Origin: Escherichia coli | GTDB lineage: Bacteria > Pseudomonadota > Gammaproteobacteria > Enterobacterales > Enterobacteriaceae | DNA length: 64,000 nt | Direction: 5' to 3' (one strand) | NCBI RefSeq assembly: GCF_022846255.1 | Contig: NZ_AP025682.1 | Part shown: piece after piece, positions 5,012 through 47,996 of the stretch | Layout: every line of letters starts with the position of its first letter | Numbering within the stretch: the stretch's first letter is position 1 | Notes under the pieces: model-generated | What the model saw: only the letters and a program-made list of their open reading frames with translations | The model's database searches: none | Told to the model about the DNA's origin: nothing | Program-made: the position numbers and the translations under genes

Positions 5012-5086
5012 AGGCCGGTTGCCCGATACCTGCATTCGCACCGCCCCGTAGGCCGGATAAGGCGTTCACGCCGCATCCGGCAAGCA
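5012..5086. repeat. REP (repetitive extragenic palindrome) in the wzc-wcaA spacer
   Basis: gtaggccggataaggcgttcacgccgcatccggcaag palindromic motif typical of E. coli REP. Confidence 0.7.
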
Positions 5087-35473: not shown

Positions 35474-36880
35474 ATGTCAAAGCAACAGATCGGCGTCGTC
35501 GGTATGGCAGTGATGGGGCGCAACCTTGCGCTCAACATCGAAAGCCGTGGTTATACCGTCTCTATTTTCAACCGTTCCCGTGAAAAGACGGAAGAAGTGA
35601 TTGCCGAAAATCCAGGCAAGAAACTGGTTCCTTACTATACGGTGAAAGAGTTTGTTGAATCTCTGGAAACGCCTCGTCGCATCCTGTTAATGGTGAAAGC
35701 AGGTGCAGGCACGGATGCTGCTATTGATTCCCTCAAACCATATCTCGATAAAGGTGACATCATCATTGATGGTGGCAATACCTTCTTCCAGGACACCATT
35801 CGTCGTAACCGTGAACTTTCTGCCGAAGGCTTTAACTTCATTGGTACCGGTGTCTCCGGTGGTGAAGAAGGCGCGCTGAAAGGTCCTTCTATTATGCCTG
35901 GTGGGCAGAAAGAAGCCTATGAACTGGTTGCACCAATCCTGACCAAAATCGCCGCAGTAGCTGAAGACGGGGAGCCATGCGTTACCTATATTGGTGCCGA
36001 TGGCGCAGGCCATTATGTGAAGATGGTTCACAACGGTATTGAATACGGCGATATGCAGCTGATTGCTGAAGCCTATTCTCTGCTTAAAGGTGGCTTGAAC
36101 CTTTCCAACGAAGAACTGGCGCAGACCTTTACCGAGTGGAATAACGGTGAACTGAGCAGCTACCTGATTGACATCACTAAAGACATCTTCACTAAAAAAG
36201 ATGAAGACGGTAACTACCTGGTTGATGTGATTCTGGATGAAGCGGCTAACAAAGGTACCGGTAAATGGACCAGCCAGAGCGCGCTGGATCTCGGTGAACC
36301 GCTGTCGCTGATTACCGAGTCTGTGTTTGCACGTTATATCTCTTCTCTGAAAGATCAGCGTGTTGCCGCATCTAAAGTTCTCTCTGGCCCGCAAGCGCAG
36401 CCAGCAGGCGATAAAGATGAGTTCATCGAAAAAGTTCGCCGTGCACTGTATCTGGGCAAAATCGTTTCTTACGCTCAGGGCTTCTCTCAACTGCGTGCGG
36501 CGTCTGAAGAGTACAACTGGGATCTGGACTACGGCGAAATCGCGAAGATTTTCCGTGCTGGCTGCATCATCCGTGCGCAGTTCCTGCAGAAAATCACCGA
36601 TGCTTATGCCGAAAATCCGCAGATCGCTAACCTGCTGCTGGCTCCGTACTTCAAGCAAATCGCCGATGACTACCAGCAGGCGCTGCGCGATGTCGTCGCT
36701 TACGCGGTACAGAACGGTATCCCGGTTCCGACCTTCGCCGCTGCGGTTGCCTATTATGACAGCTACCGCGCCGCTGTTCTGCCTGCGAACCTGATCCAGG
36801 CACAGCGTGACTATTTCGGTGCGCATACTTATAAGCGCATTGATAAAGAAGGTGTGTTCCATACCGAATGGCTGGATTAA
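35474..36880 (+). CDS. gnd: 6-phosphogluconate dehydrogenase (decarboxylating)
   Basis: 468 aa; [21 protein letters not shown]ossmann N-terminus; conserved position between the O-antigen cluster and ugd. Confidence 0.97.
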
Positions 36881-36906
36881 TCTGATTTAATCAACAATAA
36901 AATTGA

Positions 36907-36937
36907 GGCCCGGCGTATATTATGCCGGGTTTTTTTT
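36907..36937 (+). terminator. Rho-independent terminator after gnd
   Basis: ggcccggcgtatattatgccggg hairpin followed by an 8-T tract. Confidence 0.8.
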
Positions 36938-37118
36938 ACCAATTATCTTATAGACTAAATTTCACTGCTTAATATTAACTTAATAAATATCAGCTATTCT
37001 TATAAAGAAATTCTGAATTGTTTTTCGTTGCGTTGACCATCTTACAACGTAGCGTTAAAACTTTTAACTCTTATCAGGATGCTAAAAACATCATGATTCA
37101 CAGTTAAGTTAATTCTGA

Positions 37119-38294
<1,176 letters not shown>

Positions 38295-38303
38295 CATCCT
38301 GTT

Positions 38304-38336
38304 ATCAGGGCTATTTACGCCCTGATTGTCTTTTGT
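38304..38336 (+). terminator. Rho-independent terminator after ugd
   Basis: atcagggctatttacgccctgat hairpin followed by a T-rich run. Confidence 0.7.
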
Positions 38337-38439
38337 TACTTGCGTAACAATTCATTATTTTTATCAATTATCCTATAGCATTCATGAGGATTATCGCTAA
38401 ACTATGCGGACTTGGAAATTTCCGTCAGTTAGGGTAATG

Positions 38440-39420
38440 ATGAGAGTAGAAAATAATAATGTTTCTGGGCAAAACCATGACCCGGAACAGATTGATTTGA
38501 TTGATTTACTAGTGCAGTTGTGGCGTGGCAAGATGACAATCATCATTTCCGTCATTGTGGCTATTGCCCTGGCTATTGGATATTTGGCAGTAGCGAAGGA
38601 GAAATGGACGTCAACAGCAATTATCACTCAGCCCGATGTGGGGCAAATTGCTGGCTATAACAATGCCATGAATGTTATCTATGGTCAGGCTGCACCGAAA
38701 GTATCGGATTTGCAGGAGACGTTAATTGGTCGCTTCAGTTCTGCCTTCTCTGCATTAGCAGAAACGCTGGATAATCAGGAAGAACCAGAAAAACTTACCA
38801 TCGAACCTTCTGTTAAGAACCAGCAATTACCATTGACTGTTTCTTATGTTGGGCAAACTGCAGAGGGCGCACAAATGAAGTTGGCCCAATACATTCAGCA
38901 AGTTGACGATAAAGTGAATCAAGAGTTAGAAAAGGATCTCAAGGACAACATTGCTCTGGGACGGAAAAACTTGCAGGACTCTTTAAGAACGCAGGAAGTG
39001 GTTGCGCAGGAGCAGAAAGATCTGCGTATCCGTCAGATTCAGGAAGCGTTGCAGTATGCGAATCAGGCGCAGGTGACAAAACCGCAGATTCAACAGACTG
39101 GCGAAGATATCACACAAGATACGTTGTTCCTTTTGGGGAGCGAAGCGCTGGAGTCGATGATTAAGCATGAGGCGACCCGTCCGTTGGTGTTCTCACCAAA
39201 CTACTATCAGACTCGTCAAAACCTGCTTGATATCGAAAGCTTAAAGGTTGATGATCTTGATATTCATGCTTACCGCTATGTAATGAAACCGACGTTACCT
39301 ATTCGTCGTGATAGCCCGAAAAAGGCAATTACCTTGATTCTGGCGGTGCTGCTGGGTGGCATGGTTGGCGCGGGGATTGTGCTGGGGCGTAATGCTCTAC
39401 GCAATTACAACGCGAAGTAA
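38440..39420 (+). CDS. wzzB: O-antigen chain-length determinant (PCP-1)
   Basis: Start taken at the ATG at 38440 (MRVENNNVSGQ...), giving 326 aa; N- and C-terminal transmembrane helices flanking a coiled-coil periplasmic domain. Confidence 0.9.
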   Translation: MRVENNNVSGQNHDPEQIDLIDLLVQLWRGKMTIIISVIVAIALAIGYLAVAKEKWTSTAIITQPDVGQIAGYNNAMNVIYGQAAPKVSDLQETLIGRFSSAFSALAETLDNQEEPEKLTIEPSVKNQQLPLTVSYVGQTAEGAQMKLAQYIQQVDDKVNQELEKDLKDNIALGRKNLQDSLRTQEVVAQEQKDLRIRQIQEALQYANQAQVTKPQIQQTGEDITQDTLFLLGSEALESMIKHEATRPLVFSPNYYQTRQNLLDIESLKVDDLDIHAYRYVMKPTLPIRRDSPKKAITLILAVLLGGMVGAGIVLGRNALRNYNAK

Positions 39421-39515: not shown

Positions 39516-40120
39516 TCACTGATGCCGTTTACGCAGGTTCTCAATTACCGTCGTTAAATCCAGCCCCTGATCCTGCAACAACACCAGCAGGTGATACATC
39601 AAATCAGATGCCTCGTTGGTCAGCTCAAAGCGGTCATGTACCGTCGCGGCCAGCGCGGTTTCCACGCCTTCTTCGCCTACTTTCTGCGCAATGCGTTTGG
39701 TGCCGCTGGCATACAGTTTGGCAGTGTAGGAGGTTTCCGGGTCGGCAGATTTACGTTCGGCGAGCAGTTGTTCCAGTTGATACAGGAACAGCCACTGGTG
39801 AGCGGTGTCGCCGAAGCAGCTGCTGGTGCCTTTGTGGCAGGTTGGCCCGATGGGATTCGCCAGCACCAGTAACGTGTCGTTGTCGCAGTCCGGGGCAATA
39901 CTCACTACGTTGAGGAAATTGCCCGACGTTTCGCCTTTGGTCCACAGTCGCTGTTTAGTGCGCGAGAAGAAGGTGACTTTGCCGCTTTCGAGGGTTTTGT
40001 CTAAGGCTTCCGGGTTCATATAGCCCAGCATTAGCACTTCGCCGGATACCGCGTGTTGCACAATCACCGGCATAAGTCCGTCGGTTTTTTCCCAGTCCAG
40101 TTCGCGACGTTGTTGTTCTG

Positions 40121-40127
<7 letters not shown>
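39516..40127 (-). CDS. hisI: Bifunctional phosphoribosyl-AMP cyclohydrolase / phosphoribosyl-ATP pyrophosphatase
   Basis: 203 aa; last gene of the his operon. Confidence 0.95.
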
Positions 40128-42205
<2,078 letters not shown>

Positions 42206-42206
<1 letters not shown>

Positions 42207-43272
42207 TACAGCACTCCTTTTGACGAGGGCAGGGTGTCGCCTTCCACGCGGATGGCCTGGCGCAGGGTGCGACCAAAGGCTTTGAACAGGCTCTCTACAC
42301 GGTGATGATCGTTTTTACCTTTGGTTTTCAGGTGTAGCGTCACGCCCATAGTGTAAGAGAGCGAACGGAAGAAGTGCTCGATCATTTCAGTGCTGAGATC
42401 GCCCACGCGCTGGTAGGTAAATTCGGCTTTATATTCCAGGTGCGGGCGACCAGAGATATCCAGCGCGCAGCGGGCAAGGCATTCGTCCATCGGCAGCACA
42501 AAACCAAAGCGACAAATACCGCGTTTATCGCCGAGGGCAATTTTTAACGCTTCGCCCAGCGCCAGGCCGGTATCTTCGACGGTGTGGTGATCGTCGATAT
42601 AGAGGTCGCCTTTGACGTTGATTTCCATGCGGAAACCGCCGTGGGTGGCGATCTGATCCAGCATGTGATCAAAGAAGCCAACGCCGGTGTTAATCTTGCT
42701 GCCACCTTCACGATCCAGCCACACCTGGACGTCAATTTGCGTCTCTTTGGTGTTGCGCACTACGTGGGCGTAACGGTCTCGTTTAGTGAGTTGCTCGCCA
42801 ATCATCGGCCAGTTCAGGGTTTCGCGGTCGTAGCGTAAACCATTAATACCCATGTTTTCCGCCAGTTGAATATCGGTCGCGCGATCGCCAATCACATAAC
42901 TGTTGGCACGATCCATCGCTTGCTCAGCGAGATAACGCTCCACCAGTTTTACTTTCGGTTTACGGCAGTCGCACTCATCTGCGGGCAGGTGCGGACAAAT
43001 CAGCACTTCATCAAACTGCACGCCTTGCGAGGTGAAGATCTGCATCATCAGGTTGTGCGGTCCATCAAAATCCGCCTGCGGGAAACTTTGTGTTCCCAGA
43101 CCATCCTGATTAGTGATCATCACCAGTTTGTAGCCCGCTTTTTGCAGCTTCAGCAGTTCCGGGATCACGCCCGGTTCAAAGGCGAGTTTGTCAAAACGGT
43201 CCACCTGAAAATCACTCGGCGGTTCGCTAATCAGGGTTCCATCGCGATCGATAAAAAGATACTTCTGACTCA

Positions 43273-43273
<1 letters not shown>
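42206..43273 (-). CDS. hisB: Bifunctional histidinol-phosphatase / imidazoleglycerol-phosphate dehydratase
   Basis: 355 aa from [14 protein letters not shown] (HAD motif); start overlaps the hisC stop. Confidence 0.95.
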
Positions 43274-45644
<2,371 letters not shown>

Positions 45645-45649
45645 GGCGA

Positions 45650-46549
45650 TCACTCCATCATCTTCTCAATCGGCAGGACCAGGATTGAACTGGCACCCAG
45701 CGCTTTCAGTTTTTCCATGGTTTCCCAGAACAGGGTTTCGCTGCTGACCATGTGCATCGCTACGCGCTGTTGATCACCCGCCAGCGGCAGAATAGTTGGG
45801 CGTTCGGCACCTGGCAGCAGGGCGATGACTTCATCCAGACGTTCGGTCGGTGCGTGCATCATGATGTATTTTGATTCGCGCGCCTGGATCACACCCTGAA
45901 TACGGGTCAGCAGTTTGTCGATCAGTTGCTGTTTGGATTCTTCCATTTCGCCATCGCGTTGGATCAGGCAAGCTTTCGAGCGGTAGATAACTTCGACTTC
46001 GCGCAGGCCGTTTGCTTCCAGCGTGGCACCGGTGGAAACCAGATCGCAAATCGCATCCGCCAGTCCGGCACGCGGGGCGACTTCAACAGAACCGTTCAGT
46101 AAGCAGGATTTAAAAGAGATGCCTTTCTGGTCGAGATAACGCTTGAGCAGGTGAGGATAAGAGGTGGCGATACGTTTACCGTTTAAGGAGAGCGGGCCGT
46201 CCCAGGCTTCATCAACCGGCGTTGCCAGTGAAAGTCGGCAGCCGCCAAAATCCAGACGACGCAGGGTAAAGTAGCGCGGATCTTCACCCTGGGCGCGGCG
46301 GTTAAGCAGCTCTTCTTCCAGCACGTTTTCGCCGATAATCCCAAGGTCTACCACGCCATCCATTACCAGACCGGGAATGTCGTCGTCACGCACGCGCAGA
46401 ATATCAATCGGCATGTTTTCTGCCATCGCGATCAGGCGCTGGGTGTGAAGATTGATTTTAATGCCACAGCGCGCCAGCAATTCGCGTGAATCATCACTTA
46501 AACGGCCGGATTTCTGCATAGCTATGCGTAAACGAGTGTTGTCTGTCAT
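45650..46549 (-). CDS. hisG: ATP phosphoribosyltransferase
   Basis: 299 aa from [17 protein letters not shown]...; the track ORF's 13-codon upstream extension lies in the attenuator region. Confidence 0.95.
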
Positions 46550-46585
46550 TTTGTTATTCCTCTTTAAACCTGTCTGAACCGTTAT

Positions 46586-46626
46586 CAACCGCGCAATAAA
46601 AAAGCCCCCGGAAGGTGATCTTCCGG
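46586..46626 (-). terminator. his attenuator (rho-independent terminator hairpin)
   Basis: Minus-strand gagaaagcccccggaagatcaccttccgggggcttttttat between hisL and hisG. Confidence 0.9.
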
Positions 46627-46694
46627 GGGCTTTCTCATGCGTTCATGCACCACTGGAAGATCTGAATGTCTTCCAGCACACATCGCCTGAAAGA

Positions 46695-46745
46695 CTAGTC
46701 AGGATGATGGTGATGATGGTGGTGTTTAAATTGAACGCGTGTCAT
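46695..46745 (-). CDS. hisL: his operon leader peptide
   Basis: Minus-strand atgacacgcgttcaatttaaacaccaccatcatcaccatcatcctgactag encodes MTRVQFKHHHHHHHPD with 7 consecutive His codons; too short for the ORF track. Confidence 0.95.
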   Translation of the reverse strand: MTRVQFKHHHHHHHPD

Positions 46746-46783
46746 AAAAGTCTCTGTGAATGTTTATTCAACTGATGTCTTTT

Positions 46784-46813
46784 AACCTAAACCACTTTCA
46801 CGTTAGAAAGCAA
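46784..46813 (-). promoter_or_regulatory. Putative his promoter (-35 TTGCTT, -10 TAGGTT on the minus strand)
   Basis: Hexamers with about 18-bp spacing, roughly 40-70 bp upstream of hisL; AT-rich UP-like tract further upstream. Confidence 0.6.
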
Positions 46814-46967
46814 GGGCTTTTTTATATATTTTATGGCAATGGATTTGTTTAATGAATGAGCGGGGAAAGGAGGGGGCCTGGAGTGACTACGTTAGAAAAG
46901 AAATCGTGAAAATATGTCTTTAAAACCCTCAAGAACATTGTGTTCTGTAACTAAAGTGGGCTTTGTT

Positions 46968-47072
46968 CCTGCCGGATGCGGCGTGAATGCCTTATCTGGT
47001 CTACAAATGTTGCGTAAATTCAATATATTGATGTTTTTGTAGGACTGATAAGCGGAGCGCATCAGGCAATGG
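46968..47072. repeat. Two REP elements in the hisL-yeeZ spacer
   Basis: gccggatgcggcgtgaatgccttatctgg and gtaggactgataagcggagcgcatcaggc palindromic REP-type motifs. Confidence 0.65.
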
Positions 47073-47171
47073 TATATTTGCTAACCGTTTCGATTTCATT
47101 CATAGAATGAATTGTCAGTTTTGATACGCTAGCGTAGCCTTATAGATCTTAGGTGTATCAGGAGATAACGG

Positions 47172-47996
47172 ATGAAAAAGGTCGCAATTGTCGGGTTAGG
47201 GTGGTTAGGCATGCCGCTGGCGATGTCACTTTCAGCGCGAGGCTGGCAAGTCACCGGGAGTAAAACCACACAAGATGGTGTCGAAGCGGCCCGAATGAGT
47301 GGCATTGATAGCTATCTGCTTCGCATGGAGCCTGAGTTAGTTTGCGATTCTGACGATCTGGATGCCCTGATGGATGCCGATGCGCTGGTCATTACGCTTC
47401 CGGCACGTCGTAGCGGCCCCGGCGATGAGTTCTATTTACAAGCGGTACAAGAGTTAGTGGATAGCGCGCTGGCTCATCGTATTCCCCGCATTATTTTCAC
47501 CAGCTCAACGTCTGTCTATGGCGACGCGCAAGGCACGGTGAAAGAAACTACCCCGCGTAATCCGGTAACCAACAGTGGAAGAGTATTAGAAGAACTCGAA
47601 GACTGGCTGCACAATTTACCCGGTACTTCGGTCGATATTCTGCGTCTTGCGGGCCTTGTCGGACCGGGACGTCATCCCGGACGCTTCTTTGCCGGAAAAA
47701 CCGCGCCTGATGGTGAACATGGTGTTAATTTAGTCCATTTAGAAGATGTTATTGGCGCTATCACTCTGTTGTTACAGGCACCTAAAGGCGGACACATCTA
47801 TAATATATGTGCGCCAGCTCACCCTGCGCGTAATGTTTTCTATCCGCAGATGGCCCGTTTACTGGGGCTGGAACCTCCGCAGTTCAGAAATAGTCTGGAC
47901 AGCGGCAAAGGTAAGATTATTGATGGCAGTCGGATTTGTAATGAACTGGGGTTTGAATACCAGTATCCCGATCCGCTGGTAATGCCGCTGGAGTAA
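47172..47996 (+). CDS. yeeZ: NAD(P)-binding epimerase/dehydratase-like protein
   Basis: 274 aa; MKKVAIVGLGWLGMPLA Rossmann N-terminus; AGGAG RBS upstream. Confidence 0.85.
   Translation: MKKVAIVGLGWLGMPLAMSLSARGWQVTGSKTTQDGVEAARMSGIDSYLLRMEPELVCDSDDLDALMDADALVITLPARRSGPGDEFYLQAVQELVDSALAHRIPRIIFTSSTSVYGDAQGTVKETTPRNPVTNSGRVLEELEDWLHNLPGTSVDILRLAGLVGPGRHPGRFFAGKTAPDGEHGVNLVHLEDVIGAITLLLQAPKGGHIYNICAPAHPARNVFYPQMARLLGLEPPQFRNSLDSGKGKIIDGSRICNELGFEYQYPDPLVMPLE

Follow-up and report, generated by a model that had tools for sequence, protein, structure and literature searches.

The his leader is built from three successive helices (A:B, C:D, and E:F) and two antiterminator helices, a scheme that differs from the 1:2, 2:3, and 3:4 pairings of the trp leader. 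Its logic is shared with the trp, thr, leu, phe, and ilv attenuators, each of which places a short open reading frame rich in cognate codons ahead of an intrinsic terminator and alternative hairpins that overlap one another, and in which the position of the ribosome sets the fold (PMC10989985). What separates the his leader from these attenuators is the sensor codons and the sequences themselves. Within the same leader lies the his pause, a Class I signal from which RNA polymerase is released once a translating ribosome unfolds the hairpin of the pause, and which in this way couples transcription to translation (PMC4227799, PMC5842316). Few regulatory RNAs have been studied as thoroughly as the his attenuator and the his pause, and finding intact copies of them provides no new knowledge.

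Here we discuss the his control region in a 64,000-nt stretch of Escherichia coli DNA (the window). Coordinates written in descending order refer to the minus strand. We put at about 97% the probability that the whole region is the wild-type E. coli version of the canonical enterobacterial his attenuator, in which the ribosome mediates control of transcription. It is thus an already known element, a textbook control region that is real and complete but not new. The original prediction, made by reading the sequence, had described the attenuation unit as complete and intact, and this description is borne out by the K-12 identity, the match to an Rfam model, the RefSeq annotation, and the conservation of mutually exclusive pairings. 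Positions 46877..46497 are identical to K-12 MG1655 2089864..2090244 at 381 of 381 nt; the stretch spans the promoter, the leader, and the start of hisG, and in K-12 it carries the annotations hisL (b2018) and hisG (b2019). The sequence shared with K-12 reaches from 132 nt 5′ of the hisL ATG as far as the beginning of hisG. The leader peptide, segments A to F, the terminator with its 14-bp stem and 5-nt loop, and the pause RNA are all shared with the K-12/Salmonella his leader, and the control region shows no difference. The Rfam model RF00514 (His_leader) covers 46719..46596 (minus strand) from model position 1 to 126 of 126, with 131.6 bits against a gathering threshold of 49 (E = 5.3e-23). 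By comparison, the Thr_leader model reaches just 22.8 bits here against a gathering threshold of 55. Other Rfam matches below gathering (RcsR1, NsiR1, several miRNA families) were set aside together with Thr_leader, and all of them are centred on the palindromic terminator.

Downstream, and on the same strand as the leader, eight full-length open reading frames pass the NCBIfam equivalog cut-offs and form hisG-D-C-B-H-A-F-I (46549..39516). The first of these, hisG, is identified by TIGR00070 and has its ATG at 46549. When a 241-nt query comprising the promoter and the leader was searched against 5,426 complete E. coli genomes, it was found in 5,423 of them, with at least 99% identity in 4,991; RefSeq labels on the matches read "hisL: his operon leader peptide" and "His leader region". 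In a few E. coli genomes the his leader region is multi-copy, occupying up to six places per genome, with one place plasmid-borne, and the record of NEB_Turbo carries the label "His leader region (x2)". The value of the present result is that of a quality check, in that it identifies the window as a segment of the E. coli chromosome whose his control region and operon are intact and of wild type. With intact cis elements and an intact operon, histidine prototrophy and normal cis-regulation are to be expected. The suggestion that the unit indicates normal regulation of the his operon is therefore sound for the cis elements, and the inference goes no further than these.

The leader peptide is encoded at 46745..46695, where hisL starts with an ATG at 46745 and ends with a UAG stop at 46697..46695. 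The open reading frame, annotated as hisL in RefSeq, translates to MTRVQFKHHHHHHHPD followed by the stop, which agrees with the original reading of 16 residues with seven consecutive histidines. The run of seven His codons lies at 46724..46704 and is taken as the sensor at which the ribosome stalls when His-tRNA is scarce. A run of this type, (CAY)7, is unique to hisL within the 64-kb window and was seen in none of 100 shuffles. Translation of hisL has already been reported for K-12. A mechanically called open reading frame of 32 aa (46683..46585, minus strand) and a TTG-extended version of hisG starting at 46588 were both rejected; each overlaps the attenuator helices, and the RefSeq hisG starts at the ATG at 46549.

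Upstream of hisL, the putative promoter (hisLp) consists of a -35 hexamer, TTGCTT (46813..46808), an 18-nt spacer, and a -10 hexamer, TAGGTT (46789..46784), directly 3′ of which is the A/T-rich discriminator AAAAGAC (46783..46777). Both hexamers are identical in K-12. In an alignment of 67 upstream regions, TTGC of the -35 hexamer is at least 80% conserved across genera, while the -10 hexamer shows at least 95% conservation in TAG and 60-95% in GTT. TTGC and TAGGTT keep a fixed spacing across genera, and the length of the 5′ UTR is variable. An A-tract at 46823..46817 is also at least 80% conserved in these 67 regions and might act in the manner of an UP element. We infer the hexamer assignment from the conservation across genera, the K-12 identity, and the position of +1; a search of the available literature found no paper that gives the his promoter hexamers explicitly. 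In Salmonella, ppGpp control of the his promoter has been placed in the -10 hexamer and the discriminator (PMC10989985). The promoter hexamers that the original prediction noted upstream are present and conserved, but their match to the consensus is weak, and at 46784..46813 they fall outside 46586..46745 and do not belong to the attenuator itself.

The transcription start can be deduced from published DnaA-box coordinates. Only if +1 is the A at 46776 (minus strand) do the sites +46-56, +126-134, and +187-195, in the numbering of PMC10989985, map exactly, namely to 46731..46721, 46651..46643, and 46590..46582. This start places the -10 hexamer 8 nt upstream of +1 and agrees with a reported leader RNA of approximately 180 nt (PMC10989985). 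Moreover, the attenuator region has been given as +1 to +182, with the leader ending at approximately +182 in NET-seq (PMC13192712), and with +1 at 46776 this region ends at 46595.

The E:F helix, that is, the terminator hairpin (46633..46601), has 14 bp, nine of them G-C, and a predicted free energy of -26.9 kcal/mol. Arm E (46633..46620) is AAAGCCCCCGGAAG, the loop is AUCAC (46619..46615), and arm F (46614..46601) is CUUCCGGGGGCUUU, as in the published description of the his terminator as a 14-bp stem with a 5-nt loop (PMC10989985). The U-tract UUUUUUAUU, with the termination point, lies at 46603..46595, and its first three U residues double as the end of arm F. In the leader alignment the T-run of this tract is invariant across genera. 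From the end of the U-tract to the hisG ATG at 46549 there are 46 nt. The GC-rich hairpin and U-run that had been noticed ahead of hisG are present, and the interval 46586..46745 takes in hisL, the terminator, and a small number of further bases. On the opposite strand (46595..46635, plus strand), the palindromic hairpin follows an A-rich GAGAAAG, and the His_leader model gives 31.9 bits, which is below gathering. It is doubtful that the his terminator works in both directions, as the tail on the plus strand is merely CTTTCTC.

A generic promoter and terminator scan of 46400..47300 reported neither the his promoter nor the his terminator. The promoter was missed because each hexamer matches the consensus at just three of six positions and so stays below the scan threshold, and the terminator was missed because extension of the stem consumes the U-run through A-U and G-U pairs. 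The sole outputs of the scan were a weak hairpin in hisG and promoter-like sites at 47051..47022 (minus strand) and 47000..47029 (plus strand), inside the REP-containing filler upstream of the his promoter that is described below. These were dismissed as chance matches, the counts being equal to the shuffle expectation. The silence of the scan is a limitation of the tool and not an absence of the elements, and generic consensus scans of this kind may overlook even textbook promoters and terminators.

The original prediction did not mention the his pause signal, although the signal is integral to the mechanism. It occupies 46703..46675 and consists of the pause hairpin CCUGA/UCAGG (46703..46686) and CGAUGUGUGCU, with the paused RNA 3′ end at U46675. 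All 29 positions match RNA29 of the hisPEC cryo-EM scaffold, the transcript of which ends at the pause site in the structure of paused E. coli RNA polymerase (PMC5842316). The 29-nt RNA of the paused complex thus appears verbatim in the window, whereas the synthetic scaffold departs from the natural sequence at a few positions of its downstream DNA (GGAAGAGATTCAGAG in hisPEC and GGAAGACATTCAGAT in the window). The pause hairpin has 5 bp and an 8-nt loop, is positioned 11 nt upstream of the paused 3′ end, and has a predicted free energy of -4.6 kcal/mol. The UAG stop of hisL sits in the loop, and the 5′ arm corresponds to the Pro-Asp codons. Both the hairpin and the sequence have the features of a Class I hairpin-stabilised pause, and the element is the his pause signal.

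In the leader, the helices of the terminator state are A:B (46712..46699 / 46690..46677; 12 bp, -11.7 kcal/mol), C:D (46675..46669 / 46660..46654; 7 bp, -7.3 kcal/mol), and E:F. Arm A overlaps the last His codon and the Pro and Asp codons of hisL. The antiterminator state would instead comprise B:C (46695..46685 / 46679..46668; 11 bp, -10.6 kcal/mol) and D:E (46662..46649 / 46630..46617; 12 bp, -15.2 kcal/mol), the latter of which ties up arm E in its 3′ half. The whole leader folds at -77.6 kcal/mol (z = -5.95) and is strongly structured, with the terminator present. When the complete leader was folded with a 28-nt ribosome footprint placed at every codon, the terminator formed at all positions. 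Plain minimum free energy folding of the complete transcript is hence non-discriminating as a test of the switch, since the terminator always forms. It was replaced by folding of nascent RNA, because the outcome of attenuation is settled before the polymerase has made arm F. Here, the 3′ end was set at 46615, just before arm F, and the 28-nt footprint was again placed at each codon.

Folded in this way, the RNA without a ribosome forms A:B (12 bp) and C:D (7 bp), leaving arm E unpaired. When the A-site of the ribosome sits within the His run (codons 7 and 9-13), the fold changes to B:C (7-9 bp) plus D:E (12 bp), and arm E becomes sequestered. With the ribosome at codon 16 or at the stop, C:D (8 bp) forms and arm E is free again. 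Overall, D:E forms with ribosomes on codons 5-15 before arm F has been made. As soon as arm F has grown to 5 nt, the antiterminator stays the minimum free energy structure only for ribosomes on His codons 11-12. These folds show the classical mutually exclusive terminator and antiterminator pairings, between which the position of the ribosome chooses in silico. Given that the terminator wins in folds of the complete leader and that the antiterminator range becomes narrow once arm F has reached 5 nt, the switch operates kinetically, through trapping, which is beyond equilibrium folding tools. The proposal that folding of 46550..46745 would confirm the alternative structures consequently held in part: a plain fold gives the terminator only, while the antiterminator emerges in nascent RNA that carries a ribosome footprint. 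Simple equilibrium folding cannot expose the antiterminator of an attenuator.

To what extent are these pairings conserved? A collection of species-representative genomes was searched with a pattern of six His codons followed by Pro-Asp, which gave 120 loci. Of these, 71 have a short open reading frame that ends in HHHHHH(H)PD and a stop; that the His run is conserved in the alignment follows from the search itself, since the pattern demanded the six His codons and Pro-Asp. The genera include Yersinia, Citrobacter, Enterobacter, Serratia, Pantoea, Erwinia, Pectobacterium, Photorhabdus, Proteus, Morganella, Edwardsiella, Hafnia, and Aeromonas. The pairings were scored in 66 distinct leaders, comprising that of the window and 65 others. 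Cells of the alignment were paired at 97.2% in the terminator state and 96.6% in the antiterminator state, compared with 37-56% in controls in which the partners were slid by 1-3 columns, a comparison that is biased toward the tested structures because these were derived from the window sequence. The individual helices range from 95.1% (A:B) and 95.4% (D:E) to 97.9% (B:C), 98.3% (C:D), and 98.4% (E:F).

Most pairs never vary. Changes on both sides are seen for four pairs of the terminator state and three of the antiterminator state, and the latter count is no greater than in shuffles (110/500). In E:F, the compensatory changes are CG to UA in 21 sequences and GC to AU in 13, and in D:E they are GC to AU in 11-12 sequences. 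The C to U change in arm E is matched by a G to A change in arm F in 21 sequences and forms a G.U pair with arm D in 18. Similarly, an A to G change in arm C, present in 15 sequences, gives G.U pairs with both B and D. Variation in the leader is confined to changes that both pairing states tolerate.

The combined data can be accommodated in the following model, where pausing, ribosome coupling, in vivo termination, and ppGpp stimulation are drawn from literature on the identical K-12 or the Salmonella sequence (PMC10989985, PMC13192712, PMC4227799, PMC5842316). Transcription would start at A46776 from a σ70 promoter of weak consensus that is stimulated by ppGpp (TTGCTT, 18 nt, TAGGTT). RNA polymerase would transcribe hisL and the A:B segment and then pause at U46675, where the pause hairpin of 5 bp would hold it. 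The ribosome that translates hisL would melt this hairpin, because its 5′ arm is formed by the Pro-Asp codons, and free the polymerase, such that transcription and translation become synchronised. If charged tRNA-His is plentiful, the ribosome would reach the UAG and cover B; C:D would then pair, leaving E free to form E:F once F has been made. With E:F formed, the polymerase would terminate in the U-tract at 46603..46595 and yield a leader RNA of approximately 180 nt. When charged tRNA-His is in short supply, the ribosome would stall at 46724..46704, covering A but not B, and B:C and D:E would pair. F would then be without a partner, and the polymerase would read through into hisGDCBHAFI. In the case of no translation, A:B, C:D, and E:F would all form and termination would be maximal. 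Readthrough in vivo that depends on histidine and His-tRNA is known from the literature for the identical K-12 sequence, and by analogy the same behaviour would be expected here.

Could the hairpin and U-run simply be an intrinsic terminator or insulator, with a His-rich open reading frame that is there by coincidence, is untranslated, and senses no amino acid? In favour of this view, the terminator has a very high stability (-26.9 kcal/mol) and prevails in all equilibrium folds. A plain terminator, however, would have no gene to terminate upstream on the minus strand, since yeeZ is divergent. Nor does coincidence account for (CAY)7, which is unique in 64 kb with none expected, or for the 71 loci of other genera, where the MTRVQF-like N-terminus, the stop codon, and the position were not imposed by the search. 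Furthermore, the arms are placed such that the position of the ribosome can pick between two conserved pairing schemes, and PMC10989985 and PMC13192712 show, for the identical sequence, that a translating ribosome is required. Taken together, these points leave this alternative with a probability close to nil. The leader might, on the other hand, be an attenuator and in addition function in trans, as the approximately 180-nt RNA or as the 16-aa HisL peptide, for instance as a small regulatory RNA or by titrating proteins that bind tRNA-His. In keeping with such a role, the leader is made constitutively, with only approximately 18% readthrough when ppGpp is at its basal level (PMC13192712), it has a strong predicted structure (z = -5.95), and according to older proposals it resembles tRNA-His and binds the same proteins (cited in PMC10989985). 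Neither the sequence nor the comparisons made indicate a target in trans, however, and the double pairing constraint fully explains the extreme conservation of the arms. The matches to sRNA families in Rfam (RcsR1 at 25.6 against 60 bits, and others) all fall well short of gathering and have the terminator hairpin at their centre. We regard an extra function in trans as very improbable.

The alternative that deserves most weight, though still an unlikely one, is that the attenuator is additionally, or even mainly, an RNA switch that depends on DnaA. Genetic and RIP data in K-12 suggest that DnaA is needed for full attenuation (PMC10989985), and by virtue of the K-12 identity the four proposed DnaA boxes are present in the window (46731..46721, 46651..46643, and 46590..46582). 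Each box, however, has two mismatches to the 9-mer consensus, and the authors of PMC10989985 themselves use the words "possible" and "might bind". Sites with at most two mismatches number seven in the 230-nt leader, compared with 4.3 ± 2.0 after shuffling and 4.3 ± 2.8 for 230-nt stretches elsewhere in the window, and since seven such sites are reached by 14-19% of the controls, support from the sequence is no better than chance. The sequence taken by itself would thus neither support nor exclude a DnaA switch. The ribosome-mediated model accounts for the anatomy of the leader without DnaA, and ribosome-mediated attenuation is the reading that we prefer.

The only feature near the locus that departs from K-12 lies upstream of the promoter. 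In K-12, the yefM-yoeB toxin-antitoxin operon is situated between yeeZ and hisL, whereas in the window this operon is absent and a 217-nt filler with REP-type palindromes (46878..47094) stands in for K-12 2089206..2089863 (658 nt). The two arrangements diverge 64 nt upstream of the his -35 hexamer. The filler arrangement, scored at a query coverage of at least 80%, is present in 1,193 of 5,423 complete E. coli genomes (approximately 22%), and the rest have yefM-yoeB. The his promoter is sensitive to supercoiling, and for this reason it is conceivable that loss of the divergent yefM-yoeB promoter shifts basal his expression quantitatively. This would constitute a natural regulatory polymorphism outside the leader sequence, an idea that we consider a long shot.

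Within the filler, the REP-type sequence GCCGGATGCGGCGTGAA is found at 46971..46987 (plus strand) and again at 5065..5081 (minus strand) of the window, two copies compared with 0.01 expected, and an imperfect inverted repeat is formed by 46991..47007 and 47036..47052. Beyond the filler, the open reading frame at 47172..47996 (plus strand) is yeeZ, annotated in RefSeq as an SDR family oxidoreductase of 274 aa; it gave no NCBIfam match at E ≤ 1e-20. At the other end of the operon, three large open reading frames on the plus strand (468, 388, and 338 aa; 35474..39420) converge on the end of hisI. On the K-12 map these would correspond to gnd, ugd, and wzzB, in which case the O-antigen cluster would presumably lie further upstream in the window.
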